The position numbers and the translations under genes are program-made. A DNA stretch of 64,000 nt, taken from Squalus acanthias. Its lineage: Eukaryota. The notes below the pieces were generated by a model. The model had not been told where the DNA came from, made no database searches, and saw only the letters and a list, made by a program, of their open reading frames with translations. This document shows, in pieces, positions 22,711-58,493 of this stretch. The stretch spans positions 45,014,001-45,078,000 of the forward strand of contig CM059432.1 of assembly GCA_030390025.1 (NCBI GenBank). The letters run 5' to 3'. Numbering within the stretch: the stretch's first letter is position 1; every line of letters starts with the position of its first letter.

Positions 22711-22840
22711 TTTTATTCATTCATGGGATGTGGGTGTTGCTGGCAAGGCCAGCATTTATTGCCCATCCCTAATTGCCCTTGAGAAGGTGGTGGTGAGCCA
22801 CCTTCTTGAACCGCTGCAGTCCGTGTGGTGAAGGTACTCC
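22711..22840 (-). mobile_element. 3' end of the family-B LINE that hosts the 22.8-62.5 kb nest (piece 1 of 4)
   Basis: Reverse complement of the family-B tail; colinear continuation at 28461. Confidence 0.85.
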
Positions 22841-22842
22841 TA

Positions 22843-24020
22843 CAGGCTGTTGTCGGGAGCGACGAGAACGGAGGTGCTGTGAGGTGCTGTGAGTATTTGA
22901 ACTCACTTTCGCGGGCTTTTCTTCACAGGCTGTTGTCGGGAGCGACGAGACCGGAGGTGCTGTGAGGTGCTGTGAGTATTTGAACTCACTTTCACGTGCT
23001 TTTCTTCACAGGCTGTTGTCGGGAGCGACGAGACCGGAGGTGCTGTGAGGTGCTGTGAGTATTTGAACTCACTTTCGCGGGCTTTTCTTCACAGGCTGTT
23101 GTTGGGAGCGACGAGACCGGAGGTGCTGTGAGGTGCTGTGAGTATTTGAACTCACTTTCGCGGGCTTTTCTTTCACAGGCTGTTGTCGGGAGCGACGAGA
23201 CCGGAGGCGCTGTGAGGTGCTGTGAGTATTTGAACTCACTTTCGTGGGCTTTTCTTTCACAGGCTGTTGTCGGGAGAGACGAGACCGGAGGTGCTGTGAG
23301 GTGCTGTGTGTATTTGAACTCACTTTCGCGGGTTTTTCTTCACAGGCTGTTGTCGGGAGCGATGAGACCGGAGGTGCTGTGAGTATTTGAACTCACTTTC
23401 GCGGGCTTTTCTTCACAGGCTGTTGTCGGGAGCGACGAGACCGGAGGTGCTGTGAGGTGCTGTGAGTATTTGAACTCACTTTCGCGGGCTTTTCTTTCAC
23501 AGGCTGTTGTCAGGAGAGACGAGACCGGAGGTGCTGTGAGGTGCTGTGAGTATTTGAACTCACTTTCGCGGGCTTTTCTTTCACAGGCTGTTGTCGGGAG
23601 AGACGAGACCGGAGGTGCTGTGAGGTGCTGTGAGTATTTGAACTCACTTTCGTGGGCTTTTCTTTCACAGGCTGTTGTCGGGAGAGACGAGACCGGAGGT
23701 GCTGTGAGGTGCTGTGTGTATTTGAACTCACTTTCGCGGGCTTTTCTTCACAGGCTGTTGTCGGGAGCGATGAGACCGGAGGTGCTGTGAGTATTTGAAC
23801 TCACTTTCGCGGGCTTTTCTTCACAGGCTGTTGTCGGGAGCGACGAGACCGGAGGTGCTGTGAGGTGCTGTGAGTATTTGAACTCACTTTCGCGGGCTTT
23901 TCTTTCACAGGCTGTTGTCAGGAGAGACGAGACCGGAGGTGCTGTGAGGTGCTGTGAGTATTTGAACTCACTTTCGCGGGCTTTTCTTTCACAGGCTGTT
24001 GTCGGGAGAGACGAGACCGG
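22843..24020 (+). repeat. About 14.3 tandem 83-84-bp monomers (two 73-bp variants) forming the CR1 5' UTR
   Basis: Unit CAGGCTGTTGTCGGGAGCGACGAGACCGGAGGTGCTGTGAGGTGCTGTGAGTATTTGAACTCACTTTCGCGGGCTTTTCTTCA; 408-bp five-monomer higher-order period. Confidence 0.93.
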
Positions 24021-24466
24021 AAGCGGACCAGGTGGGAAGCACCCAGGTGAACGGCATTTAAGGAGGGTGGTGGCTTAAACCCGAGTTCCTACAGAGTAGG
24101 AACCCCCACCCGCCCTCCTCCTCTAACCTACTAGTCTTTTAGCAGTCTAAAAACAGAGGTCACAAATTTTTTGGTCTCAGTTTCTTTTCAGCAGGGCAGG
24201 ACGGTTACCGGGAGGAGCGGGAAGTCGGCGTAGGACCAAGGGGACACAAGACCGGGAAGTCAGCGAAAGACCAGGGAGGTAAGACTAACTAGTAAGTACT
24301 TTCCTCAAACCTTCCTAGAAACTAAAACTAAAACTAGTGGGATTTGGTTAGTTTAAAAAGGAATAAGAGGAGTACAGTATACATTGGTCTAAGTAAGCTT
24401 TGGGAAAACAAAAGTCAATAAATAAACTAAAACTAAAAAATTAAAAAGTAATATAAGGGTTAAGTC

Positions 24467-25414
24467 ATGGCAGTAGAGCTCGGACCTGTGTCATGCTCCT
24501 CCTGTAACATGTGGGAAATCAGGGACGCTTCCTGTGTCCCTGACAACCATGTGTGCAGGAAGTGTGTCCAGCCGCAGCTCATGTGGGACCGCATGACGGC
24601 CCTTGAGCTGCGGATGGACTCACTTTGGAGCATCCACGATTCTGAGAGGGTTGTGGATAGCACATTTAGTGAGTTGGTCACACCGCAGGTTAAGGCCAGC
24701 GTAGATAGTACATGGGTGACCAAAAGGCAGAGCAAGGGCAGGAAGGTAGTGCAGAAATCCCCATGGGTTGTCTCCCTTAGCAACAGGTTCACCGCCTTAG
24801 GTGCTGTTGTCGGGGGGGATGACTCATCGGGGGAAGGCACCAGCAGCCAGGCTCATGGCACCATGACTGGCTCTGTTGCAAAGAAGGGAGGGAAAAAGAG
24901 TGGCAGGGCTATAGTAATAGGGGATTCGATTGTAAGGGGAATAGATAGGGGTTTCTGTGGTCGCGACCGAGACTCCAGGATGGTATGTTGCCTCCCTGGT
25001 GCAAGGGTCAAGGATGTCTCGGCGCGGGTGCAGAACATTCTGGAGGGGGAGGGGGAACAGCCAGTTGTCGTGATACATGTTGGTACCAACGACGTAGCTA
25101 AAAAAAGGGAAGAGGTCCTACAAGTAGAATTTAGGGAGTTAGGAGCCAAGCTAAAAAGTAGGACCTCGAAGGTAGTAATCTCTGGATTACTACCAGTGCC
25201 ACGTGCTAGTAAGAGTACAGAGAACAGGATAGTTAGGCTAAATACGTGGCTTGAGCAGTGGTGTAAGAGGGAGGGTTTTAAATTTTTGAGGCATTGGAAC
25301 CAGTTTTGTGGTAGGTGTGACCTATACAAAAGGGACGGTCTACACCTGTGCAAAGATGGAACTGATGTTCTCGGGGTAATTTTTGATAAAGCAGTTCGGG
25401 AGCATTTAAACTAG
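24467..25414 (+). CDS. CR1 ORF1 protein: zinc finger/leucine zipper plus SGNH esterase-like domain
   Basis: CSSC...CRKC; coiled coil; IVIGDSIVRG, PGA, HVGTND and RDGLHL SGNH blocks; 315 aa. Confidence 0.93.
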   Translation: MAVELGPVSCSSCNMWEIRDASCVPDNHVCRKCVQPQLMWDRMTALELRMDSLWSIHDSERVVDSTFSELVTPQVKASVDSTWVTKRQSKGRKVVQKSPWVVSLSNRFTALGAVVGGDDSSGEGTSSQAHGTMTGSVAKKGGKKSGRAIVIGDSIVRGIDRGFCGRDRDSRMVCCLPGARVKDVSARVQNILEGEGEQPVVVIHVGTNDVAKKREEVLQVEFRELGAKLKSRTSKVVISGLLPVPRASKSTENRIVRLNTWLEQWCKREGFKFLRHWNQFCGRCDLYKRDGLHLCKDGTDVLGVIFDKAVREHLN

Positions 25415-28356
25415 TATGGCAGGGGGCTAGAAACCCATGTAGTGAAATAGAGGAAAGTGAAAGGCAGACAGAAATAAATGGTAAAAGGGTGAGGAACAAA
25501 AAACAAAGGGCCAAACTAATTCATAAAAAATGTGAGCATAAAAAAAGCCTGAGGGTTTTATACCTTAATGCGAGAAGCATCAGGAACAAGGTAGATGAAT
25601 TAGCTGTGGAAATAGAGGTTAATAATTATGATCTAATTGGGATTACGGAAACATGGTTGCAGGGTGAGCAGGGCTGGGAGCTTAACATACAGGGGTATTC
25701 AGTATTTAGGAAGGATCGACAAAAAAGAAAGGGAGGAGGGGTAGCATTGCTGGTAAAAGAGGGGATAAATGCAATTGAAAGGAAGGATATTAACTCAGTT
25801 AATACAGAATCTATATGGGTGGAGCTAAGAAATAGCGAGGGGCGAAAAACATTATTAGGAGTGGTATATAGGCCTCCAAATAGTAAAATAGAGGTTGGGG
25901 AGGGCATCACGAGGGAAATTAGAGAAGCGTGCAATAAGAGCACAGCTGTCATCATAGGTGACTTTAACTTACATATAGATTGGGCTAGCCTAATCAGTAA
26001 AAATAATGAGGAGGAGGAATTCCTTGAGTGTTTAAGGGATGGTTATCTGGATCAATATGTCGAGGAACCAACTCGGGAACAGGCTATATTGGACTGGGTA
26101 CTGTGCAATGAGAAGGGACTAATTAGTAATCTTGTTGTACGGGGACCCTTGGGTCAGAGCGATCATAACATGATCGATTTCTCACTCGAAATGGAGAGCG
26201 AAGAAATTGACTCAGAGACTAAGGTCCTGAATTTAAACAAGGGGAATTATGATGCCATTAGACGGGAACTGAGTAGGTCTGATTGGACAACGTTCCTGGG
26301 AGGACTGGAGGTAGATAAACAATGGCAAGCATTTAAAGATAGAATGACAAAATTGCAAAAATTGTTTATACCAATCTGGCATAAAAGGAAATCTAAAAAG
26401 GTGACTCAACCGTGGATAACAGGGGAAATTAGAGACAGCATAAAATCCAAAGATAGGGCGTATAAAATAGCCAAAAAAAGCGCCAGAGCGGAAGATTGGG
26501 AACAGTTTAAGATAGAGCAAAGGAGGACAAAGGGCTTAATCAAGAGGGGCAAAATAGCTTACGAAAGCAAGCTGGCGGAAAATATAAAAACTAACTCCAA
26601 AAGCTTTTATAAGTATATCAAGAGGAAAAGACTGGTGAAAACCAAAGTTGGTCCATTGCAGTCAGATACGGGGGAATATATAACGGGAAATAAGGAAATG
26701 GCAGACCAACTAAATGCATACTTTGGGTCAGTCTTTACGAAGGAAGACACAAAAAACCTCCCTGGGATATCGGGAAAAATAGGGACATTGGCAAAGGAGG
26801 AACTGACGCAAATCAATATCTCTAAGGATATGGTGTTAAGGAAGCTAAAGGGATTGAAGGCGGACAAATCCCCAGGGCCTGATAACATGCATCCTAGGGT
26901 ACTGAAGGAGGTGGCCCTAGAGATAGCGGATGCACTAAGTATGATTTTTCAGAATTCATTAGACTCGGGAACAGTGCCCATGGATTGGAGGGTAGCTAAC
27001 GTTACCCCACTATTCAAAAAGGGGGGTAGGGAAAAAGCAGGTAATTACAGACCTGTAAGCCTTACATCAGTTGTGGGCAAAATGCTGGAGTCCATCATTA
27101 AGGATGAAATAGCGGAGCACTTAGCAAATGGGGACAGGATAGGACAGAGTCAACATGGATTTACAAAGGGTAAATCGTGCTTGACTAATCTATTGGAATT
27201 TTTTGAGGGAGTAACTGGTAAAATAGATGGGGGAGAGCCAGTAGATGTGGTGTACCTGGACTTCCAAAAGGCCTTCGATAAGGTCCCACATAAAAGATTA
27301 GCACGGAAAATTGAAGCTCATGGGATAAAGGGGAAAGTATTGACCTGGATAGAGAACTGGCTGTCAGATAGAAAACAAAGAGTTGGAATAAACGGCTCAT
27401 TTTCTGAATGGCAGGCAGTAACAAGTGGGGTACCACAGGGATCTGTCCTGGGTCCCCAGCTGTTCACAATTTACATTAATGACCTGGATCAGGGAGTCGG
27501 ATGCAGCATTTCCAAATTTGCAGACGACACTAAACTAGGAGGGGGGGTGGGCTCAGAGGAGGAGACCAGGAAGCTCCAGAGCGATTTGGACAGACTGGGT
27601 GATTGGGCGGATAAATGGCAGATGCACTATAATGTGGACAAGTGCGAAGTTATCCACCTTGGGTGCAGGAACGGGAGGGCAAATTATTATTTAAATGGCA
27701 ATAAATTGGGAGAGGGGGAAGTACAGAGAGACCTGGGTGTTCTTGTACACCAGTCACTGAAGGCGAGCATGCAGGTGCAACAGGCGGTCAAGAAGGCAAA
27801 CGGTATGCTGGCCTTCATAGCAAAAGGGTTGGAATACAGGAACAGGGATACCTTGCTGCAGCTGTACAGGGCACTGGTGAGACCACACCTCGAGTACTGT
27901 GTACAGTTTTGGTCGCCTCATCTGAGGAAAGATGTTCTTGCCATGGAGGGGGTGCAGCGGCGATTCACCAGGCTGATACCAGGAATGGCGGGATTGACCT
28001 ATGAGGAGAGACTATGTAGTTTAGGGATGTACACACTGGAGTTTAGAAGATTGAGAGGGGACCTCATAGAAGTGTATAAAATTCTGACAGGTCTAGACAG
28101 ACTAGATGCAGAAGGAATGTTTCCCTTGGCGGGTGAGAACAGAACTAGAGGACATAATTTAAGGATAAGGGCTAAACCATTTAGGACAGAAATGAGGGGG
28201 AATTTCTTCACTCAGAGGGTGGTGAACCTGTGGAACTCATTGCCACAGAGGGCAGTGTACGCCAGCTCATTAAATATATTTAAGAGGGAATTAGATATAT
28301 TTCTACAGGCAAAAGGGGTTAAGGGTTACGGAGAGAAGGCGGGGACGGGATACTGA
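25390..28356 (+). CDS. CR1 ORF2: APE endonuclease plus reverse transcriptase, uninterrupted; frame open from 25390, no AUG before 26170
   Basis: YLNARS, ITETWL, YRPP, GDFN, SDH, QHGF, PQGSVLGP, FADDTKL, LEYCVQFW, WNSLP. Confidence 0.95.
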   Translation, partial: SSSGAFKLVWQGARNPCSEIEESERQTEINGKRVRNKKQRAKLIHKKCEHKKSLRVLYLNARSIRNKVDELAVEIEVNNYDLIGITETWLQGEQGWELNIQGYSVFRKDRQKRKGGGVALLVKEGINAIERKDINSVNTESIWVELRNSEGRKTLLGVVYRPPNSKIEVGEGITREIREACNKSTAVIIGDFNLHIDWASLISKNNEEEEFLECLRDGYLDQYVEEPTREQAILDWVLCNEKGLISNLVVRGPLGQSDHNMIDFSLEMESEEIDSETKVLNLNKGNYDAIRRELSRSDWTTFLGGLEVDKQWQAFKDRMTKLQKLFIPIWHKRKSKKVTQPWITGEIRDSIKSKDRAYKIAKKSARAEDWEQFKIEQRRTKGLIKRGKIAYESKLAENIKTNSKSFYKYIKRKRLVKTKVGPLQSDTGEYITGNKEMADQLNAYFGSVFTKEDTKNLPGISGKIGTLAKEELTQINISKDMVLRKLKGLKADKSPGPDNMHPRVLKEVALEIADALSMIFQNSLDSGTVPMDWRVANVTPLFKKGGREKAGNYRPVSLTSVVGKMLESIIKDEIAEHLANGDRIGQSQHGFTKGKSCLTNLLEFFEGVTGKIDGGEPVDVVYLDFQKAFDKVPHKRLARKIEAHGIKGKVLTWIENWLSDRKQRVGINGSFSEWQAVTSGVPQGSVLGPQLFTIYINDLDQGVGCSISKFADDTKLGGGVGSEEETRKLQSDLDRLGDWADKWQMHYNVDKCEVIHLGCRNGRANYYLNGNKLGEGEVQRDLGVLVHQSLKASMQVQQAVKKANGMLAFIAKGLEYRNRDTLLQLYRALVRPHLEYCVQFWSPHLRKDVLAMEGVQRRFTRLIPGMAGLTYEERLCSLGMYTLEFRRLRGDLIEVYKILTGLDRLDAEGMFPLAGENRTRGHNLRIRAKPFRTEMRGNFFTQRVVNLWNSLPQRAVYASSLNIFKRELDIFLQAKGVKGYGEKAGTGY

Positions 28357-29422: not shown

Positions 29423-31175
29423 ATGGCGACCACGAAGGGACACTGGCAGCGAGAAAGTAACGTGTTAGACCCTGGTATGAATGGGCGAAATGTTATGGAA
29501 GAGAGAATAGCCGACTATGTATTTGGGAAGGTTAATTTGACCAAGAGATGGATAAGTGACCTGCTGGTTGATAAGCGTCCGCTAGACGCAGCCATCAGGT
29601 GGACAGGCAGCAAAGAACACAAAAAATCGGTAGAAAAAGCGGTCTGGCTGATGTGTTATAAAAGGCAAGTCCAGCTTTCGGACCAGGTCATCGTAGCACA
29701 GGCAGCCCAGATCACGGGTTTGGTGGTGGAGATGGAGGAAAAGGTTGCGGGGGGGGCAGCAGCTCATCGCGTCCTTAAATGCGTTGCATCAGGAACGCCA
29801 GTTAGTCGCCAACCACCATGAGGCTAAAATAGATTACCTCGAGTGCCAAGTCACAGAGGCAAAGTTAAATGAGGGTAGGATCAGGGAACGGTGTGCCCGC
29901 CTAGCTGCCCAAATAAAAGCCCAAGAAGAGAGCTTGAAGGGAGTTAGGGCGGCATATAAGATGGCTCTCGAAGATAAACACGAGGGGGCCGACCACAGCG
30001 TCTGCCAGAGAGAGATAGAGAACCTTAAAGAGGCCCTGAATAAAGCAAATGGCATGGTGTGCCTCATCAGCCCGTCAGCACACCAGCTTCAGGTGGGTGG
30101 GGAATTCCAAAACTCCCTACCAAACAAAGCAGAGGAGGTATTTGCCACTGTGCCCTCCGCGCCACCCAGCTATTCGGCAACCTGGGTAAGGGAGGAAGTG
30201 GTAGAAGTAGAGGAAGAGGTCCCCGAGGTAGAACAGTCCCCAGAGGTAGTGTCGAAGCCGGGACAGTTGTGCCCGGTCACAGGTCACAAGAGGGGCCCGA
30301 ACGGAGCTGGTGGGGAAGAGGGGAATCTCCTGAACCAGCTTGTGTTGCCTCACAGCTCACACCAGCTGAGGGCAATGATCAGTCACGTACGGAAGCTGTC
30401 TGAGTCAGACGACCCTTCCGTACATTTCAGGGAGGTAGAGCAGACCGCAGCAATTAATGGCTGCGACGATAAAGAAAGGGCAAAAATGCTGCTGTTCTCA
30501 CTGGACAGCTCGATCCTACAGTGTCTCTCAGACGCGAGCAAAAAGGGAAATAGGACCTATGGGGAGTTAAGGGATGAGGTCCTAGAAGTGTTGGGGGCGG
30601 ACGACGAAGGTCCGTTCGTTAGATTGGGTCAAACAGTGCAGATGGAGGGAGAACCCCCGAAGGTTTTCGCCGACAGGCTGTGGCCAGTATACCAGCGTAG
30701 CTGCCCAGGCGCGCCAGCGCGTCACCGCATAGACGGTGTCGGTTTAACTCACTGGCTCAGATGCTTAGTAGCCAACAGTTTGCCAGCCGTCAGGGAGCAG
30801 GCCAAAGCGTGGTTTGACCCCACCAACCCCATCACAACCGAGGAGTCGGTCTTAAATCGACTCACGGTAGGGTACCGTAACACAAGGAGCACGGGGGCGC
30901 GTCCCCTTAAGGGAAAGGTGCATGAGGCACGGCCCACAGCCACGGCTCAAAAGGAGTGGCATCAGGAGGGTAATCGCGCCCCGCAGGCCAGTGGTGCTTG
31001 TTACGGGTGCGGGAAGACAGGTCATTGGCGTAAGAACTGCAGGAACCCCTGGAAGGAGTCCAGGGATAAAAATCCCGCAGCCCGTACCCAAGCGCCTGTC
31101 TCTGAAAAAGGAGTTGGTGTGCCTATCCATCCCGATGCGATAGAATCAATGTTGGTAAATAATTTTAAATTGTAA
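29423..31175 (+). pseudogene. gag: ERV-B1 gag (+1 G in the run at 29749-29756; C-terminus cut by the pol deletion)
   Basis: N-terminal coiled coil; PSAPPSY late motif; MHR-like QMEGEPPKVFADRL; knuckle CYGCGKTGHWRKNC. Confidence 0.88.
29424..29441 (+). promoter_or_regulatory. Primer binding site, tRNA-Arg(UCG)
   Basis: TGGCGACCACGAAGGGAC is complementary to the ...GTCCCTTCGTGGTCG-CCA end of vertebrate tRNA-Arg-TCG (recalled sequence). Confidence 0.8.
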
Positions 31176-31342
31176 AAGATAAATGATGGGAGTTTTGGAA
31201 ATAGGTTTAGTTAAAAGTCTATCCAGGAAACATGTCCTTTTACGTGAGGCGAGGTCAAGGGACCCGCTCACCCTTCACAAAAGCCAGAGACTCTTGGGAG
31301 GCTGGCTACATCATTTTATCTGATCACAGGAACCAAGGAAGG

Positions 31343-33694
31343 ATGGAACGGATTCTGGTAGTGCTCGCGGCAATCGGATGTGGACTGGCCTATCGAGGCC
31401 GCACCAAGGATGTCGTGGTGTTTGGATGCTCCGGGGACATGGCCCCCATCGCGACGGATGGGACCGGGAGGCGAGAGGCTGAGGAGACCGCCAGTTATTT
31501 CCACAAGGGAAGGTGGCCAGGATGGCTGGGAACGAATTCAACTGAATACTCCAGTACATCGGGATTTGCCTACAAAGAGACTTCTTTGATGTGCCCCAAA
31601 GTGAGGATCATTGCGCCCAGAATCAACGTCACCGTCGGCAAAAGGATTTGTTTGACTTGTAATGGGAACGTCCCATTGAGCCGATGGTGGTGGCTACGAA
31701 AGCTGAGCTAAAATATGAGGAATTCCTCGGTCGAGTGGGAGCGATTGGGTAACAATACCCATCGGACAATTACGGGGACTAACGGACAATTGAAAGTCTG
31801 TTGGGACAAATGGTGGGAACCGGATGAGGGAATCTATGTATGTATGTGGGGGTCGAAGTCTGTCTGCCCCAAAGGCATATCCATATTTTTCGTAAACCAG
31901 TGGCGGGATAACGGGCAAGGGATGAGGTGGGATGTCAGCACCAGGGGGTGCGGAGCTCCATACTCTCCGATCCCGGTAAACGCCACTGAACTCATCACAC
32001 GCCCACGCAAAGCTCCGCCCACGATTCCGGTGGTTTTGGCTCAGGAGGAAGGGTGCCCTAAAACCACAAAGGGGCCCGGGAATGGTTTGGTACTGGTCCC
32101 AACAGACCAGATACTATTTCAGGGGGTACATTACGCGGTGGCCTCGGTGATTTTAAATCTCACCGAGGTGCGGTTGCCAGAGTGGTGCCCCAAAGAGACG
32201 GAACAATTGTACCAAGTCCTGTTGACAAACATGTTTAGACAATTCTACGAGTTTAATTTTGCGGAGATTGACAAAACAAGCTTGTACACCACACCACATG
32301 AAGTTTTGGGCCAGGTGGGGAGACAAAGAAGGGGTGTTGTGAATGACATGTTCACCGCTTTCAATACAGGGACATCTGTGGTCAACGCTCTAGACAACGT
32401 GGAGCTGCAGACCCAGATTAATGGTTTAAAAACCCAATTAAAGGACATCCTCACAAGTGAAAATAAGGTAGTGGAGTCTGAATTACATGAGGACCAGGCC
32501 ATGACGCTACACTTAAAGGAAATTATAGCAGAGCTGGAGAAACACGCGCGCACAGTAAATGCCCTGATCAGGGAAGATCGGAATGCATCTGATCAAGCTG
32601 CGCAGAACGAGGTGTGCGTACTATATGGGGCGTGGTTACTGGGCGAGGGCCGCAGTAATTTGGAGGATTTAAAACAAGGTTTGGTCCCGTCCTGGATAAA
32701 CAACAAACACCTGCAAGCGCTCCACCCTTTTCAGAACGCATTAAGCCCGTGTCAGCTCAGGCTAGCTTCAGAAGCATACCCAGTCCCCGTGGACTGCAGA
32801 CGATCTAACCATACCATTATGGGCATTGTCTTACGTATGCCGGTTTTGGGCGACACAGCAAAGCCCGCCCCGGTGTATCGGGTAGAGAACATTGGTGTCA
32901 TTCAGGGGGGAGCCCACATTCGCTATGCAACGGTCCCACCTTACGTCATCCGCTGGGAGCAAACGATGACAGGTACAGATCTGTCTGGTTGTCGTGGCCG
33001 GGGAGCACACATAATACTGTGTCCCCAGCACTTGAATGCCTTTCTATCACCACAGTGCGGGTTCAGAACGGCTGGCGCCAAGCCCATGAATTGCACCATG
33101 GAGGCAATGACACAAGATCATGTGCCTCCGCAGGTAGCATACATCGGGGGTGGAACATATTGTGTTACCACTGCAGCGCAACACTACCAGCATGGAAACT
33201 GTAGCCGGTGTCCGGTGAGTGACAGCAGTTTCTGTTTTAAACCCAGGGCTGAAGTTCAAGTGGCACAGCAGCGAATTGTCCCGATCCCTGAACCATCCAC
33301 TGTTCATCTAACAGTAAAGGAGAATTTCACCGACTTGCAGCGATTCGTCGCGCATTTCGGATACATCATTCCCCCTCTCCCTGAACACCTCACCAAGCTT
33401 TTGAAAGCCGTTGTGGTTTCGCAGAAACATTTTTATACCCTAGAGCAAAAGACTGTCGAGATAGGGTCAGAAATTCTAGACATATTAATCCCACCGTGGT
33501 GGGATCTGTTCACCAACATTGAAGTGCCTTCCTGGATTAGAATAGCCTCCCACATTTTAGTTGTATGCCAGGTAATAATTGTAGTGTACCTATTGGTCAT
33601 GCACTGCAAGAGGGGCAAGCGCCTCACCAAGCAGGAGAACACTGGGGAGTGGAGAGAACGTTACGTGCGCGTGCACGAGGAAAGCGCCGCGTAA
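31343..33694 (+). pseudogene. env: ERV-B1 env, class I F-type/foamy-like fusion protein with N-terminal Ig-like domain; one in-frame TAA at 31709
   Basis: Acceptor TTATCTGATCACAG, signal peptide MERILVVLAAIGCGLA, DEGIYVC, furin RQRR, heptad, Cys-rich region, TM IASHILVVCQVIIVVYLLV. Confidence 0.88.
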
Positions 33695-34161: not shown

Positions 34162-35825
34162 TGTAAAATTCGCAAATTATCGCGATTCGAAATAATGAGA
34201 AAAGGAGATACAGTTTCGTTCAAGTAGTTTTATTTTCAGCAAAATGCTGTCATGTTTCAAAACGGACACAAGAAGCCTGTAAAATGGTCGCCGCGCCTCG
34301 TGGCAGAAGTTTCTAGATTTTCAGTAGACAGACAAGATGGCGTTCCAATAAACATTTCAGTAAGATCGGATAATACTCAGCAAACATCGGTAAAGGGCAG
34401 GACGCAACCGATTTGCATTCGACACAATAAGCAAGAAATATAAGTGCTGGAATCGGTTTTCCATGCACAAGCGAGGGCTATTGTACTGGGCAATCAGAGG
34501 CCCATCCAAAGACATTGATACGCAAATTCCCCGCGGCTCTACGATGAGAGAGCCATTCGCGGGTACTCACACAAATATTTCGGAGGCCCCCAAAACCCCG
34601 CCAGGGAGGCTCCCAGCCGGTTCCACAATGGGAGACACATTAACGGGTGTTTGGCCAGTTACGAGTATCACCGAAAGCCATTACAAACAAGAATCACCCC
34701 ATACAAGAAGTTTGAGCGCCAAAATATTACAAAAGATGAACATTAAGATTGGGCGGGAGATAAGGAATTACAGTACTATAACTGTAGTGAACAAACGTCC
34801 ATCTTGCTTCTTGACTCTCTTATCCCTGACGACTCTTATCTCTGCTGATTATTGACTCGGGCTGAACTCTTATCCTCTTGCTGTCCACCGAACTCTTGTT
34901 CCGCTGATCCTTTTGGGGTCGACCTCGTGGCTTGCCGCGAAGATCTGTGAAGAGCTGGACTGCGAAGGCCGATAAGCGGGTGCACCATCCCGAAGGTCGG
35001 TAAACGGTGTTTGGACTCGAAGGCCCGACAAAATAAGACAAGAGAAGAAGAAGAAGAAGACGACTACACGTGCCGCCGCGGTCAGTAAGCCCCGACCGCG
35101 CCCGAAAATATATTGACCATTTTGAACTCTATAGGTTACTGCACGAACTGGCCCAAGAAGACTTTTCTTCGAATTCTACCGACAACCGGTGTCGGCACAG
35201 GAAGACTCTTCTTCGAGTTTTATCAGGAGTCCGAGGTCAACACAGATCTTCATGACAGCAGACGTTCTAGCCTGCTAGCCGGAGCAGAGCAAGTAAACAA
35301 GTGGGGTACAGAGACCCCTGGTCAACATGTGGATAGTCAGGTGCTGCGGCGAAAACAGCCGAGTACCGTTGCAGAATTCTCTGAGGTATCATGAGTGGTG
35401 AGCATGTTTCTCGATCCTACAGATCTAGATTAGAGCAGGTATTGATAGGGGAGGGTGGTTTTATTAAGGATAATTATAAAGTGTGTCCCCTTTTACAATG
35501 TGTCGTGCGCTCCTCATTTCCCTAAACCCAGTTTTATAAATGTATGTAAGCTTGTACTGTCATTAATCTGTGCTTATGACATGTATTTCGTAATTTTGAA
35601 CAATATGCAATAAAGATTTCCATTTCGTACTATTCAACCGGGTCTACCTGAGTTTTCTCTGCATTACTGCTCTCGCACCTAAGTCCAGTGTCAGAACTGT
35701 AAGGGCGAGTGGGTCGAACCACTCACAGGTGTTTAGTGCTACAAGGCTGGCTGGAGACCAGAACAGGCAATAAGGCCTAACCCCGCACAAGCACCTAGAA
35801 GCACAGCACGAGCAGACCCCTTACA
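34162..35825 (+). repeat. ERV-B1 3' LTR (1664 bp)
   Basis: TGTAA...TTACA; colinear with 36456-38130; ATTGG/GGGCGG and TATAAC near 34750-34780; AATAAA near 35609. Confidence 0.93.
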
Positions 35826-36455: not shown

Positions 36456-38130
36456 TGTAGAATTCGCAAATTATCGCGATTTAAAAATAATGAGAAAAAG
36501 ACATACAGTTTCGTAAACACAGCTTTATTTCAGCAAAATGCTGTCAGGTTTCAAAACGGACACAAGCAGCCTGTAAAATGGCCACCACGCCTCGTGGCAG
36601 AAGGTTCTAGACTTTCAGCAGGCAGACAAGATGGCGTTTCAATAAACATTTCAGCAAGATCGGACAGGACTCAGCATATTGAGATAAGACAAGACGAGAT
36701 CGTTTTGCATTTTTAACACCCAAGCAAGGAATATAAGTGCTGGAATCGGGTTTTTCCATGCACAAATGAGAGCTATTGTACTGGGCAATCAAGGGGCCCA
36801 TCCAAAGACATTGATACGCAAATTCCCCACGGCTCTACGATGAGAGAGCCGTTCGCGGGTACTCACAGCAAGAATTCGGAGGCCCCCAAAACCCCTCCAG
36901 GGAGACTCCTAGCCAGTTCCACAAGGGGAGAAATATTAACGGGTACTCAGACAGTTACAAGTATCACCGAAACCCATTAACAACAAGTACCACCCCATAC
37001 AAGAAGTTTGAGCGCCAAAACATGACAAAAGATGAACATTAAGATTGGGCGGGAGATAAGGAATTACAGTACTATAACTGTAGTGACCAAACGTCCATTT
37101 TTCTCTTATTCCTTTGACTCGCTAGAGAACTCTTGACTCTTATTCTCTGATCCGCTGATTTTCCAGGAGTCAACCTCGTGGCTTGCCGCGAAGATCTGTG
37201 GAGAGCTGGTCTGCGAAGGCCTGTAAGCGGGCGCACCATCCCGAGAAGTCAGTAAACGGTGTTGGAACCGAAGGCCCGAGAGGAGATGAGATGAGATGAG
37301 AAGAGAAGAAGACGACTACACGTGCCGCCGCGGTCAGTAAACCCTGACCTTGCCCGAAAATCGATTAACCACTTCTTCGAATTCTATCGGCTACTCCACA
37401 ACTGGCCCTGGAAGACTTTTCTTCGAGTTCTACCGACAACTGGTGTCGGTCCAGAAAGACTCTTCTTTGAATTTTACCGGCTAACTGGTGTCGGGCACAG
37501 GAAGACTCTTCTTTGAGTTTTATCAGAGTTCCGAGGTCAACACAGATCTTCATGACAGCAGACGGTCCAGCCTGCTAGCCGGAGCACAGCGAGTAAATAA
37601 GTGGGGTACAGAGACCCCTGATCAACACGTGAATAGTCAGGTGCTGTGGTGAAAACATCCGAGCAGCGTTTCGGAATTCTCCGAGTTATCACGAGTGGTG
37701 AGCATGAGTCTCGATCCTACAGATCTAGATTAGGACAGGTATTGATAGGGGAGGGTTTTTGTTTTAAGGATAATTATAATGTGTGTCCCCTTTTACGATG
37801 TGTCGTGCGCTCCTCGTTTCCCTAAACCTAGTTGCATAAATGTATGTAAGTTTGTACTGTCATTAATCTGTGCTTATGACATGTATTTCGTAATCTTGGA
37901 TAATATGCAATAAAGATTTTCCATTTCGTACTATTCAACCGGGTCTACCTGAGTTTTCTCTGCATTATTGCTCTCGCACCTAAGTCCAGTGTCAGAACCG
38001 TAAGGGCGAGTGGGTCGAACCACTCACAGGTGTCTAGTGCTACCAGGCTGGCTGGAGACCAGAACAGGCAACAAGGCCTAACCCCGCACTAGCACCCAGG
38101 CTAAGCACAGAGCCACGCGAACCCCTTACA
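36456..38130 (+). repeat. ERV-B2 5' LTR (1675 bp)
   Basis: TGTAG...TTACA; homologous to but diverged from 34162-35825. Confidence 0.93.
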
Positions 38131-38134
38131 GGAA

Positions 38135-39958
38135 ATGGCGACCACGAAGGGACACTGGCAGCGAGAAAATAATGTGTTAGACCCTGGTATGAATGGGCGA
38201 AATGTTATGGAAGAGAGAATAGCAGATTATGTTTTTGGAAAAGTTAATTTGACTAAGAGATGGATAAGTGACCTGCTGGTGGATAAGCGTCCGCTAGATG
38301 CAACCATCAGGTGGACAGGTAGCAAGGAACACAAAAAATCGGTAGAGAAAGCGGTTTGGCTGATGTGTTATAAAAGGCAAGTCCAGCTTTCGGACCAGGT
38401 CATCGTAGCGCAGGCAGCTCAGATCACGGGTTTGGTGGTGGAGATGGAGGAAAAGGTCGCGGGGGGGCAGCAGCTCATCGCATCCTTAAATGCGTTGCAT
38501 CAGGAACGCCAGTTAGTCGCCAACCACCATGAGGCGAAGATAGATTACCTCGAGTGCCAGGTCACTGAGGCATAATTAAATGAGGGCAGAATAAGGGAAC
38601 GATGTGCCCGCCTAGCTGCTCAAATAAAAGCCCAGGAAGAGAGCTTAAAGGGGTTTAGGGCGGCATATAAGATGGCCCTCGAGGATAAACATGAGGGGGC
38701 CGATCACAGCGTCTGCCAAAGAGAGATAGGGAACCTTAAAGAGGCCCTGAATAAAGCGCACGGCATGGTGTGCCTTATCAGCCCGTCAGCACACCAGCCG
38801 CCGGTGGGTGGGGAATTCCAAAACTCCCTACCAAACAAAGCAGAGGAGGCATTTGCCACTGTGCCCTCCGCGCCACCCAGCTATTCGGCAACCTGGGTAA
38901 GGGAGGAAGTGGTAGAAGTAGAGGAAGAGGTCCCCGAGGTAGTACAGCCCCCTGAAGTAGTAGTGAAGCCGGGACCGTTGTGCCCGCTTACAGGTATCAA
39001 GAGGGGCCCGAACGGAGACGGTGGGGAAGCGGAGAATCTCCTCAGCCAGCTTGTGTTGCCACACAATGCACACCAGCTGAGGGCTATGATCAGTCACGTA
39101 CGGAAGCTGTCCGAGTCAGACGACCCTTCCGTACATTTCAGGGAGGTAGAGCAGACCGCAGCCATTAACGGCTGCGACGATGGAGAAAAGGCAAAAATGC
39201 TGCTGTTCTCATTAGACAGCTCGGTCCTACAGTGTCTCTCAGACGCGAGCAAAAGGGGAGATCATACCTATGGGGAATTGAGGGACGAGGCCCTGGAAGT
39301 GTTGGGAGCGGACGATGAAGGTCCGTTCGTTAGATTGGGACAGACAGTGCAGATGGAGGGAGAACCCCCGAAGGTTTTCGCCGACAGGCTGTGGCCAGTA
39401 TACCAGCGTAGCTGCCCAGGTGCGCCAGAGCGCACCTATTTGAACGGCATCGGTTTAACTCAGTGGCTCAGGTGTGTAGTAGCCAACAGTTTGCCAGCCG
39501 TCAGGGAGCAGGCAAAAGCGTGGTTTGATCCCACTAACCCCATCACAACTGAGGAGTCGGTCCTAAATCGACTCACGGTAGGGTACCATAATACTAGGAG
39601 TACGGGAGCGCGTCCCCTCAAGGGAAAGGTGCATGAGGCACGGCCCGCAGCCCCGGCTCTAAGGGAGTGGCATCAGGAGGGAAATCGCGTCCCACAAGCC
39701 AGTAATGCTTGTTTCGGGTGCGGAAAGACAGGGCACTGGCGCAAGAACTGCAGGAACCCTTGGAAGGAGTCCAGGGATAAAAATCCCGCAGCCCGAGCCC
39801 AGGCGCCTGCCCCCGATAAGGGAGCTGGTGTGCATATCCATCCCGATGCGATAGAATCAATGCTGGGAGCCATGCGGACCCTCATGATTTCGCAAGGAAG
39901 GGTGGCAGTTGCTACCGGCCCCGCAGATGCCGCAGCCCCGTCCAACAGTACCCAATGA
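38135..39958 (+). pseudogene. gag: ERV-B2 gag (premature TAA at 38573)
   Basis: ORFs 38135-38575 and 38672-39958 share a frame; B1 has AAG at the stop; PSAPPSY; CFGCGKTGHWRKNC; ends TGA-CTAG. Confidence 0.9.
38136..38153 (+). promoter_or_regulatory. Primer binding site, tRNA-Arg(UCG)
   Basis: TGGCGACCACGAAGGGAC, 5 nt after the LTR end. Confidence 0.8.
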
Positions 39959-44449: not shown

Positions 44450-44727
44450 GTAGGCCGCCCTGGGAACGGGCGGCACTGTACAGTTCATAAGTTTATAAGT
44501 TAAGTTTAAGTTTTATAGGTTTTAAATCAGGTTAAGTTTGTAGTTTAAATTTTTTAACAGTAAAGATAAATGATGGGAGTTTAGAGATAGGAATAGTTAA
44601 AGTCTATCCAGCATACATGTCTTTTTATGTGAGGCGAGGTCAAGGGACCCGCTCACCCTTCACAAAAGCCAGAGACTCTTGGGAGGCTGGCTACCTCATG
44701 TTATCTGATCACAGGAACCAAGGAAGG

Positions 44728-46572
44728 ATGGAACGGATTCTGGTAGTGCTCGTGGCATTTGGATGTGGATTGGCCTATCGAGGCCGCACCAAGGATGTCG
44801 TGGTGTTTGGATGCTCCGGGGACACAGCCCCCATCGCGGTAGATGGGACCGGGAGGCGAGAGGCTGAGGAGACCGCCACTTATTTCCACAAGGGAAGGTG
44901 GCCGGGATGGCTGGGAACGAATTCGACGGAATGCCCTAAAACCAGTAAGGGACCCGGGAATGGTTTGGTACTGGTCCCAACAGACCAGATACTATTTCAG
45001 GGGGTACATTACGCGGTGGCTTCGGTGATTTTAAATCTCACCGAGGTGCGGTTGCCAGAGTGGTGCCCCAAAGAGACGGAACAATTGTACCAAGTCCTGT
45101 TGACCAATATGTTTAGACAATTCTACGAGTTTGATTTTGCGGAGATTGACAAAACAAGCTTGTACACCACACCACATGAAGTTTTGGGCCAGGTGGGGAG
45201 ACAAAGAAGGGGTGTTGTGAACGACATGTTCACCGCTTTCAATACAGGGACATCTGTGGTCAACGCTCTAGACAACGTGGAGCTGCAGACCCAGGTTAAT
45301 GGTTTAAAAACACAATTAAAGAATATTCTTACAGACGAAAATAAGGTAGTGGGGTCCGAATTACACGAGGACCAGGCCATGACACTACACTTAAAAGAGA
45401 TTATAGCTGAGCTGGAGAAACACGCGCGGACGGTAAATGCCCTGATCAGGGAAGATCGGAATGCGTCCGATCAGGCTGCGCAGAACGAGGTGTGCGTGCT
45501 TTACGGGGCGTGGTTACTGGGCGAGGGCCGCAGTAATTTGGAGGATTTAAAACAAGGTTTGGTCCCGTCCTGGATAAGTAACAAACACCTGCAGGCGCTC
45601 CACCCTTTTCAGAACGCATTAAGCCCGTGCCAGCTCAGGCTAGCTTCAGAAGCATACCCAGTCCCCGTGGACTGCGGACGGTCAAATCATACCATTATGG
45701 GTATAGTGTTACGTATGCCGGTTTTGGGCGACACAGCAAAGCCCGCCCCAGTGTATCGGGTAGAGAACATTGGTGTCATTCAGGGGGGAGCCCACATTCG
45801 CTACGCAGCGGTCCCACCTTACGTCATCCGCTGGGAGCAAACGATGACAGGTACAGATCTGTCTGGTTGTCGTGGCCAGGGAGCACACATAATCCTGTGT
45901 CCCCAGCACTTGAATGCCTTTTTAACACCACAGTGCGGGTTCAGAACGGCTGGCGCCAAGCCCATGAATTGCACCATGGAGGCAATGGCACAAGATCATG
46001 TGCCTCCGCAGGTGGCATACATCGGGGGTGGAACATATTGTGTTACCACTGCAGCGCAACACTACCAGCATGGAAACCGTAGCTGGTGTCCGGTGAGTGA
46101 CAGCAGTTTCTGTTTTAAACCCAGGGCTGAAGTTCAAGTGGCACAGCAGCGAATTGTCCCGATCCCTGAACCATCCACTGTTCATCTAACAGTAAAGGAG
46201 AATTTTACCGACTTGCAGCGATTCGTCGCGCATTTCGGATACCTCATTCCCCCTCTCCCTGTACACCTCACCAAGCTTTTGAAAGCCGTTGCGGTTTCGC
46301 AGAAACATTTTTATACCCTTGAGCAAAAGACCGTCGAGATAGGGTCAGAAATTCTAGACATAGTAATCCCACCGTGGTGGGATCTGTTCACCAACATTGA
46401 AGTGCCTTCCTGGATTAGAATAGCCTTCCACATTTTAGTTGTATGCCAGGTAATAATTGTAGTGTACCTATTGGTCGTGCACTGCAAGAGGGGCAAGCGC
46501 CTCACAAAACAGGAAAACACGGGAGAGTGGCGAGAGCGTTACGTGCGCGTGCACGAAGAAAGCGCCGCGTAA
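44728..46572 (+). CDS. env: ERV-B2 env, intact ORF, lacking the 169-codon Ig-like segment
   Basis: Signal MERILVVLVAFGCGLA, furin RQRR, heptad, Cys-rich region, TM; highly similar to B1 env apart from the missing segment. Confidence 0.9.
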   Translation: MERILVVLVAFGCGLAYRGRTKDVVVFGCSGDTAPIAVDGTGRREAEETATYFHKGRWPGWLGTNSTECPKTSKGPGNGLVLVPTDQILFQGVHYAVASVILNLTEVRLPEWCPKETEQLYQVLLTNMFRQFYEFDFAEIDKTSLYTTPHEVLGQVGRQRRGVVNDMFTAFNTGTSVVNALDNVELQTQVNGLKTQLKNILTDENKVVGSELHEDQAMTLHLKEIIAELEKHARTVNALIREDRNASDQAAQNEVCVLYGAWLLGEGRSNLEDLKQGLVPSWISNKHLQALHPFQNALSPCQLRLASEAYPVPVDCGRSNHTIMGIVLRMPVLGDTAKPAPVYRVENIGVIQGGAHIRYAAVPPYVIRWEQTMTGTDLSGCRGQGAHIILCPQHLNAFLTPQCGFRTAGAKPMNCTMEAMAQDHVPPQVAYIGGGTYCVTTAAQHYQHGNRSWCPVSDSSFCFKPRAEVQVAQQRIVPIPEPSTVHLTVKENFTDLQRFVAHFGYLIPPLPVHLTKLLKAVAVSQKHFYTLEQKTVEIGSEILDIVIPPWWDLFTNIEVPSWIRIAFHILVVCQVIIVVYLLVVHCKRGKRLTKQENTGEWRERYVRVHEESAA

Positions 46573-57036: not shown

Positions 57037-58318
57037 ATATGAATGGTCATAATTTGGTCCTCTTCCAATTCCTCCTGTTCTAGACCATTCATTTTGTTCA
57101 AAATTTCCTTTAAACGATTTCTAACTGCCTCTACGGATTGATCCAAATGAGCTAAATCAAGGCTATTAACGAGGGAGGTATTAAAAACAGTTGCTGCATC
57201 ATTTATCAGACCTCGTCACCTTCTGATATGATTCCCTTTAATCCCGTAACCAACATCATTTTCTTCAATGATCTTGGTACTATTATTCCCCAAGGTATCG
57301 TTAAATCCATTACCATCCCCTGAGCCCTTGTAATTTAATGGCTCCAAATCCGATTCCGCCAGTGTTGTGCTGCCCTTTCCAAAATCCCTCCATTAATTCC
57401 CGCATCATCCTCCCATATAACCGCGTTGTCTCTGGCTTGCACCAGTTCGGTAGTCCCACCTCAGTCAGATTCAATATTACCGGCACCACCTTGTGATGCA
57501 CATCATGGTACAATATCATCCAAGTTGGGATTACCACCAACCCATTTGTCGGTCCCGGGGTGTGTTTGGTGCAGACAACCCGGGTTTCCTGTTGTTCTTC
57601 CCGTGGTTGTGTTTTATTTGTAGGGAGGGGAAGTTTAGGACGGACTTTCAATTTCACCATGTGTATTATTGCGTTTTCACATTGCTGCACATGATAATGT
57701 GAGCAACTCTTCCAACCCCTACATGGCCTTCCCTCCCCTTACACAAACCATTGGTAGGGACCCCTGTCATCTATTCCATTCGCTTGGATACTTTTCCTGC
57801 CTATCCAGTGGACGGGATCTCCACAAAGCGGCTCTGTGGATACGAAAGTATGGTTAGATGGCGACCCCGAAGGGTTTACGCACCCACAGATTCCCTCGTG
57901 CTCTTGCCACCATCGTGGCCAACACAACATGGTTTCTCCATTGTCTTCCAATTGAGTTGGGCTCCCATTGTGCCCCCAAGGATCCCCTATCTGGTGGTAA
58001 CTGGTATTGTCACCCGCTTTTGCCTGAATGAACCATACACGCGGCTGACTTGTAGTTCCACTCTTACACTTTACACATATTCCCCTCCCTTCTTGGACCG
58101 CATATGTGATTACTCGTGCTATTCCTGAACAACTTGTGCCGTACGTACCCTTGATGGATCGGAGGGTAACCTCCCGAGCGATACCTCGGGGCGGAGTTAC
58201 GGGGGCAATGGTAATCTGACTGTCGTAACTTGAATCGCTGGATGCTCCCTCATGTGTTGCTGCTGCCCTTTTGAGATGGAGCGCTATGCCACACAACAAC
58301 AAAAATAGCCGCCCCGTC
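57037..58318 (-). pseudogene. env: ERV-C env, 5' part including the Ig-like segment and furin site
   Basis: VQEGRGICVKC, VWF, LCWPRWWQEHEGICGC; GPTNGLVVIPT..VILNLTEVGLPNWC; RR*RGLINDAATVFNTS. Confidence 0.82.
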
Positions 58319-58493
58319 TTTCTCTGTCTTGTTCTGGCCTGTGGGGATAAGGGACAAAAACATAGTATTACTCCCGGCCTTGCACCCTACGTACACCCAT
58401 TAGTTCAGGCTTTCATTACTAATGTATTTTTTTTAAACGAAACAAAAGGGGGCTTCCTACATTTCTTTTTCTGCATTGGGCAATTTTCGACTC

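Follow-up and report, generated by a model that had tools for sequence, protein, structure and literature searches.

A putative immunoglobulin-superfamily-type module in the N-terminal extension of F-like retroviral envelopes of cartilaginous fishes

Envelope proteins with an F-like fusion core are known in lokiretroviruses, foamy viruses and errantiviruses. According to the available part of one recent account (PMC11468914), fusion proteins on the F scaffold are modular and gain receptor-binding modules in viruses that lack a separate attachment protein. For the lokiretrovirus Env, the available part of Wang and Han (2020; PMC7947760) reports a match to PF00523 (e 2.2e-7). As described there, this Env resembles the B1 envelope in being the sole env product of a retrovirus-like element from lower vertebrates and in having a signal peptide, polybasic cleavage site, fusion peptide, coiled-coil region and membrane span. 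The words immunoglobulin, shark, cartilaginous and Chondrichthy- do not occur in the text of that paper (PMC7947760), cartilaginous fishes are absent from the hosts listed in its abstract, and the available parts of the literature cited here contain no account of cell binding by lokiretrovirus-type envelopes.

The window, which is the whole stretch of 64,000 nucleotides of Squalus acanthias DNA that was analysed, contains env regions of the elements B1 (copies 1 and 2) and ERV-C (Table 1). Translation of 31211-33694 (+), in B1 copy 1, which is without pol, reads ...VTVGKRICLTCNGNVPLSRWWWLRKLS, then the sole in-frame TAA, then NMRNSS...GQLKVCWDKWWEPDEGIYVCMWGSKSVCPKGISIFFV...; a sense codon stands at the place of the TAA in all eight other B1 copies whose translation was compared there. 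Outside the N-terminal module discussed below, the envelope appears to share its layout, as a likeness of architecture only, with paramyxovirus F and with the Envs of lokiretroviruses and foamy viruses: after a short F2-like piece come a furin site and a fusion peptide, then a long helical repeat and a large Cys-rich middle, and finally a second repeat adjoining the membrane span and a short tail. Read from the sequence, RQRR is directly followed by GVVNDMFTAFNTGTSVVNAL, so that a polybasic site precedes a fusion peptide and a short N-terminal subunit precedes a long C-terminal one with a span; the F1-like subunit of B1 likewise has a Cys-rich middle part and a short tail. The lokiretrovirus Env has a PF00523 match in the available part of its description (PMC7947760), whereas the B1-type env has none: PF00523 did not match P0001 at E<=10, eight homologues at E<=1 or the copy 2 env at E<=0.01. 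A stricter first look at the own genome also gave no PF00523 match and is uninformative, because 14 control genomes were likewise without one. A five-sequence Env profile (A7) searched against PDB sequences found no viral glycoprotein, foamy Env included, and one chance-level aminotransferase match. The label "F-type" applied by an earlier reading made from the DNA letters alone (the sequence-only reading) draws on the architecture and on the lokiretrovirus and foamy-virus literature, and no PF00523 or PDB sequence match bears it out.

B1 copy 2 lies in a gag-pol-env provirus whose pol matches RVP/gag-asp_proteas, RVT_1, RT_RNaseH, RT_RNaseH_2, RNase_H, Integrase_H2C2 and rve, and it has the lokiretrovirus gag-pol-env arrangement (PR, RT, a tether that is a degraded RNase H, RNase H and IN); the combination of tether and RNase H is shared with lokiretrovirus pol as given in the available part of its description (PMC7947760). 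A deletion of 507 nt (aa 69-237) has removed the entire N-terminal module from its env, with the junction at 44914-44943. Removal of this stretch as an intron was considered and rejected, because it has neither a GT start nor an AG end; as the junction also occurs only once in the genome, it represents a one-off deletion and neither a spliced nor a propagated form.

Table 1. Coordinates of the features in the window; B1 residue numbers start from the Met at 31343
Feature	Position	Strand	Remarks
gag of B1 copy 1	29697-31175		directly upstream of the copy 1 env
B1 copy 1 env-like frame	31343..33694	+	783 codons and stop; single in-frame TAA 31709-31711
Signal-peptide-like hydrophobic start, MERILVVLAAIGCGLAYRG	31343..31399	+	read from translation, without a predictor
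Pre-Ig segment, aa 20-84	31400..31594	+
Ig-like module, aa 85-185	31595..31897	+
In-frame TAA within the Ig-like module	31709..31711	+	private to B1 copy 1
Linker, aa 186-243	31898..32071	+	with C203 and C238
F2-like segment, aa 244-330	32072..32332	+	aligned with distant Envs P0012, P0015 and P0021
Polybasic site RQRR, aa 327-330	32321-32332	+	C-terminal end of the F2-like segment
F1-like subunit	32333..33691	+	read by eye, without a coiled-coil program
Fusion-peptide-like stretch in F1-like subunit	32333-32392	+
Long helix-forming repeat region in F1-like subunit	about 32393-32578	+
HRB-like stretch in F1-like subunit	33428-33487	+
Membrane span, aa 731-752	33533-33598	+	read by eye
B1 copy 2 env, open frame	44725..46572	+	within gag-pol-env provirus 38105-46572
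ERV-C linker and F2-like segment (...GPTNGLVVIPTWMILYHDVHHKVVPVILNLTEVGLPNWC...)	57313..57738	-
ERV-C env N-terminal part	57742..58386	-	open frame stops at TAA 57739-57741
ERV-C Ig-like module	57832..58119	-	Cys C104, C107, C155, C169

The module between the signal-peptide-like start and the F2-like segment was examined for three features of Ig domains, namely B- and F-strand Cys about 55-75 residues apart, a C-strand Trp 10-15 residues past the first Cys, and the motif [D/E]xGxYxC. B1 has all three: of the Cys in the translated module (C103, C106, C153, C167 and C175), the canonical pair C106-C167 is spaced by 61 residues, a run of Trp (W116-W118) begins 10 residues past C106, and the F-strand motif is DEGIYVC. 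The ERV-C env, translated from 58386-57742 (-), reads ...VQEGRGICVKCKSGTTSQPRVWFIQ...MLCWPRWWQEHEGICGCV..., with C107 and C169 spaced by 62 residues, also within the range, and a Trp 11 residues past C107. Both families share an extra Cys pair, C103/C153 in B1, where C103 sits three residues before the canonical C106, and C104/C155 in ERV-C; C103 and C153, in the B and E strands, probably form a second disulfide. The motifs that the sequence-only reading had quoted, at 31595-31897 (B1) and 58119-57832 (-) (ERV-C), as well as both spacings, the Trp after the first Cys and the common extra pair, were reproduced on translation. One point of that reading needs correction: the ERV-C copy in the window has EGICGC only because its own Tyr codon changed to Cys, and the relatives mostly have EGIYGC.

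Comparison of profiles with hhalign indicates that the module is not confined to these two families. B1-like (4 sequences) and ERV-C-like (15 sequences) profiles align over 77 columns with a probability of 96.8% (E 2.8e-10), and the ERV-C-like profile aligns with that of a third matching family from other sharks, P0015-like, with a probability of 90.4% (E 1.4e-6). At the level of sequence profiles, homology of the module is thereby established for at least three envelope families of cartilaginous-fish endogenous retroviruses (B1-like, ERV-C-like and P0015-like). In an alignment of 39 rows (A5), in which counts take the rows with a residue at the column, the B-strand Cys is kept in 34/39 rows, the C-strand Trp (W116 column) in 35/39 and the F-strand Cys in all 32 rows with a residue there; four rows of a fourth family stop short of this last column, and longer frames of that family at two loci (L073 and L075) have no F-strand Cys. 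The F-strand Tyr is found in 5/5 B1-like and 17/20 ERV-C-like rows but in only one of six P0015-like rows. The conservation of Cys, Trp and YxC on which the sequence-only reading had staked its case is therefore borne out, the Tyr being weak in the P0015-like family. The C103 and C153 columns are both filled in B1-like and ERV-C-like rows, and both are without Cys in P0015-like, fourth-family and frog rows.

Searches against PDB sequences point to the Ig superfamily. A 13-sequence profile gave 207 matches at E<=10, and all 60 among the matches listed are Ig-superfamily chains, aligned Cys on Cys, Trp on Trp and GxYxC on GxYxC. The best among the matches listed were DIP-alpha (4.1e-6, a sum over three Ig domains whose single-domain independent E values are >=0.9) and DIP-gamma (4.5e-4), and neuroplastin, TCR mu and CD8 alpha were also found. 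With a B1-only profile, 13/16 matches belonged to the Ig superfamily, the best being the CRTAM V domain (E 0.0097, 91/104 positions), and with a P0015-like profile 12/13 were antibody V chains (best E 0.1). An ERV-C-only profile gave just two matches, both to the Ig superfamily and neither significant (E 0.71 and 1.1), and a single B1 Env gave nothing at E<=10. In Pfam, Ig_3 (PF13927) was the sole family matching the module region (E 0.0085-0.58); its best score, 17 bits (E 0.0085), falls below the gathering cut-off of 30, and matches at E<=1 came from only 4/39 sequences and from none of the 21 ERV-C-like rows. Confidence is low for both AlphaFold models (model 1, mean pLDDT 41.0, module 55-69; model 2, mean 55.9, with no G strand predicted). 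Strands B, C, C', D, E and F are predicted and C'' is not clear, and the structural neighbours listed for the low-confidence model are all Ig domains, at 10-18% identity. Foldseek with the models found no match reaching E 0.001, and Z values from VIA were below 8 throughout, which according to the tool may reflect only a common arrangement. Neither an ESM Atlas search with P0015, which gave no usable match, nor word-index protein searches, which returned only close relatives and chimeric gene models, nor an IMG/VR scan in which none of the 65 pattern matches to the Env profile was confirmed, added to this picture.

The subthreshold Pfam matches, with none from ERV-C-like rows, the insignificant ERV-C-only profile and the low-confidence models would all suit a virus-specific Cys/Trp-rich beta domain that is no Ig domain and bears an Ig signature by convergence or chance. 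So would the odd features of the module, namely the extra Cys three residues before the canonical one and a WxxWW motif on the E strand and beyond (conserved as CWxxWW), and the fourth family, whose longer frames at two loci are without the F-strand Cys. Such a domain nevertheless seems distinctly improbable, because the sub-profiles repeatedly pick Ig-superfamily chains (60/60 of the matches listed, 13/16, 12/13 and 2/2), each listed structural neighbour is an Ig domain, and strand order and spacing suit the I/V-set. Because of the PDB profile matches, the exclusively Ig neighbours of the low-confidence model and the purifying selection described below, the reading of the module, about 100 residues long, as an Ig-superfamily-type beta-sandwich, nearest the I/V-set, is well supported but not proven. 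The claim of the sequence-only reading that both families carry an Ig module between signal peptide and F2-like segment is thus upheld by signature and profiles, while neither Pfam nor structure prediction reaches a confident assignment.

B1 is a young, very abundant endogenous retrovirus of cartilaginous fish. The 5903 first-look candidates include at least 150 copies with 93-100% protein identity over a 137-residue query, and roughly 40 of these 150 scored matches fall within open frames of at least 825 residues. In 19 gapless B1 copies (171 pairs pooled, the pairs not being independent; pS about 0.18), pN/pS is 0.12 in the module, compared with 0.07 for F2 and 0.09 for the start of F1, and all 11 key residues are kept in all 19 copies. 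During the multiplication of the B1 family, purifying selection has thus preserved the module as it has the fusion core. Many near-identical copies, open frames and purifying selection across env point to recent spread through reinfection rather than intracellular copying. Short contigs from four of eight runs guessed to be RNA span the whole env at 90-99% likeness and are uninformative on transcription.

The sequence-only reading had suggested that the Ig fold was captured from the host. Acquisition through recombination with the transcript of a host Ig-superfamily gene, as opposed to inheritance from an envelope ancestor, would be consistent with the absence of the module from related Envs such as P0012, to which the shark module profile gave an hhalign probability of 0.3% and no alignment of note; this absence implies that heads vary between lineages on one fusion core. 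It would also fit the frog Env P0021, whose V-like N-terminal segment, with a J-like WGEG motif, matches antibody VH chains in 28/28 matches (best E 0.0029). The frog segment was considered as the same module and dropped, since hhalign detected no homology with the shark profile, which could mean separate acquisitions. Extended further, lower-vertebrate F-scaffold envelopes would have repeatedly taken host immune or adhesion V/I-set domains as receptor-binding heads, shark and frog P0021 being separate captures, and the displayed domain would engage the natural ligand of its donor; we think this general scheme unlikely. Capture of the shark module itself is conceivable but somewhat doubtful, because no donor gene was found and the matching domains are generic (DIPs, CRTAM, CD8 alpha and antibody V domains). 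An exhaustive profile search of 1.84 billion representatives yielded 31 proteins, and the 14 examined in full were all env pieces, a Niban-like sequence, or both. Weak matches to the repeat proteins P0028 and P0032, the latter with cadherin-like and bacterial Ig-like repeats, align to the pre-Ig part (N-terminal profile positions 19-89) and not to the Ig part, and were set aside as chance-level. No closest host domain emerged from the own genome either: all ten weaker matches that were translated are env N-terminal modules, and at two informative loci of three with flanks an integrase lies upstream and an F2-like stretch downstream.

Because the virus has a single envelope gene and lacks a separate attachment protein, its receptor-binding head is most likely the N-terminal extension that includes the Ig-like module. 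The head would lie in the N-terminal extension of the surface subunit, and the F2-like piece would keep it attached to the fusion subunit once furin had cut; receptor engagement would then release the fusion machinery. The arrangement would resemble foamy-virus Env and coronavirus spike, in which receptor-binding modules are grafted on the F scaffold. Alternatively, the module might be a decoy, a ligand that mimics a host Ig-superfamily protein or a glycan shield over the fusion core, with the receptor bound elsewhere, for example by aa 20-84 or 186-243. Three N-glycosylation sequons in the module (N95, N127 and N137) would fit such a role, as would purifying selection on both flanks, the pre-Ig segment (pN/pS 0.29; pLDDT below 50 in model 1) and the linker (pN/pS 0.08), from which it follows that the flanking segments are also functional. 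In BFVD, moreover, Foldseek found nothing below E 0.013; among the 50 matches listed, the only viral neighbours were Ig-like proteins of large DNA viruses, and no retroviral or paramyxoviral glycoprotein was present. A decoy or shield is, however, quite unlikely in our estimate: with generic Ig domains from many families as its best matches, the module mimics no particular host protein, and a decoy would leave unexplained why it is placed N-terminally in the surface subunit of the sole envelope protein. Taken as a whole, an Ig-superfamily-type module in the N-terminal extension of a class I envelope surface subunit, most likely serving as receptor-binding head, is the reading we consider reasonably probable.

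If this reading is correct, an Ig-superfamily-type head would be a new kind of receptor-binding module among the modular F-core fusogens, would provide a small defined domain for receptor hunting in cartilaginous fishes, and would raise the testable question of an origin of the domain from the host. Literature searches found no published description of an Ig-like module on such a retroviral Env, in agreement with the sequence-only reading, which knew of no described example; the automatic UniRef name "Ig-like domain-containing protein" nevertheless stands on P0015 (UniRef100_A0A401SHR0 / GCC29952.1, Chiloscyllium punctatum, 739 aa). This "hypothetical protein", whose names mention no envelope or retrovirus, is a full-length homologue of the B1-type envelope and carries the homologous module.

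Among cellular proteins, the V/I-set domains of CRTAM, CD8 alpha, Drosophila DIPs, neuroplastin/basigin, TREM-1 and pIgR share with the module its Cys-Trp-Cys core, an F strand with GxYxC, its length and its predicted order of strands; the module differs in its low identity to them (10-18%), in scores below Pfam thresholds, and in its extra pair C103/C153 and conserved CWxxWW, and no one cellular family is clearly nearest to it. The Ig-like proteins of large DNA viruses (iridovirus, herpesvirus and adenovirus) are likewise virus-encoded Ig-type domains, but they match weakly and are separate membrane or secreted proteins, outside the fusogen. Foamy-virus Env ("class Ib"), as far as the available part of its description goes (Fernandez et al., 2024; PMC11468914), is also a retroviral F-like scaffold bearing its own receptor-binding module. 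That module is inserted inside SU, between N-SU and C-SU, whereas the present one lies upstream of the F2-like piece; unlike the foamy-virus protein, moreover, the envelope described here lacks a leader peptide carrying a first membrane span, and the gag of its element has a CCHC knuckle.

The Ig-like segment in the envelope of the young B1 retroviral family is real and conserved, and is very probably of Ig-superfamily type, carried on a retroviral envelope of F architecture. The strings quoted in the sequence-only reading, which placed an Ig domain in both B1 and ERV-C, are all present, with main Cys residues 61 (B1 C106-C167, numbered from the Met at 31343) and 62 (ERV-C C107-C169) residues apart and Trp 10-12 residues (W116-W118) and 11 residues past the first Cys, respectively. 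The full Cys sets, C103, C106, C153, C167 and C175 in B1 and C104, C107, C155 and C169 in ERV-C, include the extra pair claimed for both families (C103/C153 and C104/C155). Because a B1-like profile (4 sequences) aligns with an ERV-C-like profile (15) at an hhalign probability of 96.8% (E 2.8e-10, 77 columns), the resemblance lies beyond chance.

The predicted conservation of the C/W/YxC residues is borne out in an alignment of 39 natural-sequence rows: the B-strand Cys is retained in 34/39, the C-strand Trp in 35/39 and the F-strand Cys in all 32 rows reaching that column, and the F-strand Tyr is found in 5/5 B1-like, 17/20 ERV-C-like and 1/6 rows resembling P0015, a Chiloscyllium punctatum Env of 739 aa. 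The ERV-C copy in the window reads EGICGC where most relatives have EGIYGC. A fourth env family on other contigs of the same genome (loci L073 and L075) retains the module's CxC, Trp and LNWxxxW motifs. Because these two frames are without the F-strand Cys, the canonical disulfide may have been lost in that family. C103 and C153 are co-present in B1-like (7/7 and 5/5) and ERV-C-like rows (17/21 and 20/21) and jointly missing from P0015-like, fourth-family and frog rows, a pattern that reflects very few independent events and would be consistent with a second disulfide joining strands B and E, which lie next to each other.

Ig_3 was the sole Pfam family matching the module region, but every score fell under the 30-bit cut-off (E 0.0085 for protein P0006, 0.0088 for a segment of locus L004, 0.37 for P0001 and 0.58 for P0005), and at E<=1 it was found in 4/39 members and 0/21 ERV-C-like rows. 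Against all PDB sequences, a 13-sequence profile of the module gave 207 matches at E<=10, the best 60 of which were all Ig-superfamily chains; the E value of its best match, DIP-alpha (4.1e-6), is a sum over three Ig domains, none of which does better than 0.9 in independent E. Ig-superfamily chains made up 13/16 matches of a B1-only profile (best, CRTAM V domain, E 0.0097), and antibody V chains 12/13 of a P0015-like profile (best E 0.1); an ERV-C-only profile gave nothing significant, its 2 matches (VL and a filamin repeat) having E values of 0.71 and 1.1. A first structure model (224 aa, 21 rows) had a mean pLDDT of 41, with 55-69 in the module, and a second (121 aa, 39 rows) had a mean pLDDT of 55.9 and a pTM of 0.48, with strands compatible with B, C, C', D, E and F and no predicted G strand. 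The 50 PDB matches listed by Foldseek for the second model were all Ig V-type chains (E 0.007-0.025, probability 0.96-1.00, TM ~0.26-0.54 by target length), none of those listed reaching E 0.001; the first gave a similar list of Ig chains at E 0.05 and above. Because conservation, Pfam, PDB profiles and models, each a weak to moderate line by itself, are mutually consistent, an Ig-type fold is favoured and considered highly likely. The Ig-fold module proposed for the Env of this clade is upheld to that degree, against sub-threshold Pfam scores, a low pLDDT and a non-significant ERV-C-only profile.

The scaffold, read directly from the B1 env sequence (see table), is laid out like paramyxovirus F and like the lokiretrovirus Env model (PMC7947760). 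Pfam scans gave no PF00523 row for the B1 Env, eight homologues or the env of copy 2, a genome search for PF00523 found nothing, with control genomes negative too, and a 5-sequence Env profile matched no viral glycoprotein in the PDB. Because homology to F could not be demonstrated, the term F-type is here an architectural label.

Features of the window and of the B1 copy 1 Env (aa, residues of that Env)
Feature	Position	Strand	Remarks
LINE ORF2	25390-28353	+	upstream of B1 copy 1; endonuclease and reverse transcriptase (RVT_1 E 4.4e-32)
B1 copy 1 gag	29697-31175	+	env frame directly 3'
B1 copy 1 env-like frame	31343-33694	+	783 codons; one in-frame TAA, 31709-31711
Hydrophobic start	N-terminus of B1 env
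Extension	aa 20-243		~225 residues
Ig-like module	31595-31897 (aa 85-185)	+
Short F2-like piece	aa 244-330		aligned with distant Envs
RQRR	aa 327-330
Gly/hydrophobic stretch, then long helix-forming region	after RQRR
Cys-rich part			~280 residues
Second repeat	aa 696-715
Membrane span	aa 731-752		then 31-residue tail
B1 copy 2 gag	38105-39958		full-length provirus adjoining copy 1
B1 copy 2 pol	40016-44449		protease, RVT_1, RT_RNaseH (tether), RNase_H, Integrase_H2C2, rve
B1 copy 2 env	44725-46572
ERV-C integrase	59372-58494	-
ERV-C env N-terminal part	58386-57742	-
ERV-C F2-like part	57738-57313	-
ERV-C later env pieces	52001-51705, 51386-50904	-
Harbinger/PIF-type DNA transposon	49219-50538	-	inside ERV-C env; DDE_Tnp_4 E 2.2e-39
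Second Harbinger/PIF-type transposon	52362-53607	+	inside ERV-C env; judged by eye

Copy 1 lacks pol, its gag being followed directly by env (29697-33694); the gag of the neighbouring B1 copy has a CCHC knuckle. Repeats at 34234-35798 and 36528-38099 resemble adjoining LTRs of two tandem proviruses. After the integrase, the B1 pol has a long, acidic, Pro/Ala-rich C-terminal tail with internal repeats (43768-44449; ...GAELGEAEPAAVVGPQ... twice), and upstream of the LINE lie tandem arrays of two interleaved repeat families (unit ~83-84 nt, 22759-24114). The env of copy 2, otherwise open, has lost 507 nt in frame (aa 69-237, exactly the N-terminal module; junction 44914-44943). The ends of the missing stretch are not GT..AG, and the junction is unique in the genome (1 occurrence); the loss is a single deletion event, whose sole lesson is that the N-terminal extension can be separated as a block.

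B1 is a very large, young family: a first look at the 3.7 Gb host genome gave 5903 candidates, all 150 scored copies have 93-100% protein identity over a 137-residue query, and about 40 of these matches, counted from the table of scores, lie in open frames of at least 825 aa. ERV-C, on the minus strand, is older, its 5124 candidates having 43-85% identity (window copy aside) and many having stops. When 1.84 billion representative proteins were searched exhaustively with a profile, just 31 were returned at E<=0.001. Of eight looked up, P0006 is nameless and seven are named, six from sharks and a skate (Rhinoraja, Pristiophorus, Chiloscyllium, Mustelus, Rhincodon) and the seventh, P0021, from the frog Pelodytes ibericus; a word-index search added P0033, from Scyliorhinus. 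The P0015 family is also present in the window's genome (39 matches), and its module is homologous to that of ERV-C (hhalign 90.4%, E 1.4e-6). Three Pristiophorus japonicus gene models, named 'Niban 1-like' (P0003), 'ZFP2-like' (P0004) and 'cadherin-related family member 5-like' (P0017), match B1 env; the two inspected, P0003 and P0004, are chimeras including env pieces, and annotation pipelines join exons of ERV env to genes of the host.

Pairwise Nei-Gojobori counts for 19 gapless B1 copies (171 pairs), with no consensus built, gave a pooled pN/pS of 0.12 for the module (pS 0.18), 0.29 for the pre-Ig segment (aa 20-84), 0.08 for the linker (aa 186-243), 0.07 for the F2-like part and 0.09 for the F1 start, figures that are descriptive and carry no test because the pairs have a common history. 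Excluded were 11/30 fetched loci, namely the window's own L001 and ten gapped or short-aligned ones. In this comparison, proposed in the sequence-only reading as dN/dS, all 11 key residues are retained in 19/19 copies, and most differences between copies accrued under selection for a functional envelope, module included.

Host capture of the module was suggested earlier as possible; no donor gene was found in the host, cellular Ig domain matches are generic, and 10 weaker own-genome matches, fetched and translated, read as env N-terminal modules, with integrase upstream at the three loci viewed with flanks (L073, L074, L075) and an F2-like stretch downstream at L073 and L075. P0012 and P0013 represent a related Env type whose N-terminal part differs (P0012, hhalign 0.3%). 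The frog Env is of the same overall type as in sharks; homology of its N-terminal segment to the shark module was undetectable by hhalign, and the segment ends in a J-like WGEG motif and, searched alone (aa ~85-185), matches solely antibody VH chains (28/28, best E 0.0029). Because heads thus differ between lineages on one core, module exchange or capture would be allowed.

That no example had been described holds for the literature searched, subscription journals aside, in which no description was found under lokiretroviruses, shark ERV envelopes or retroviral Ig-like receptor-binding domains, but P0015 (UniRef100_A0A401SHR0) carries the automatic UniRef name 'Ig-like domain-containing protein'. 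Ig-like sandwiches have been described for gammaretroviral SU, in its receptor-binding domain, and for paramyxovirus F, in domain II; to our knowledge, the Ig-superfamily Cys-Trp-Cys signature is absent from both.

Because the B1 provirus has a single env and no attachment gene, the receptor-binding function must reside in Env. The receptor may be bound by the segments flanking the module, and the module itself may be a decoy or shield. The Ig-like module is nevertheless taken as the probable receptor-binding head, since the added part is N-terminal and the module is its only recognisable domain; after furin cleavage, this head would be carried on the F2-like piece. Receptor binding within Env has a precedent in foamy-virus Env, and these fusogens are drawn as modular, with insertion sites that differ (PMC11468914).
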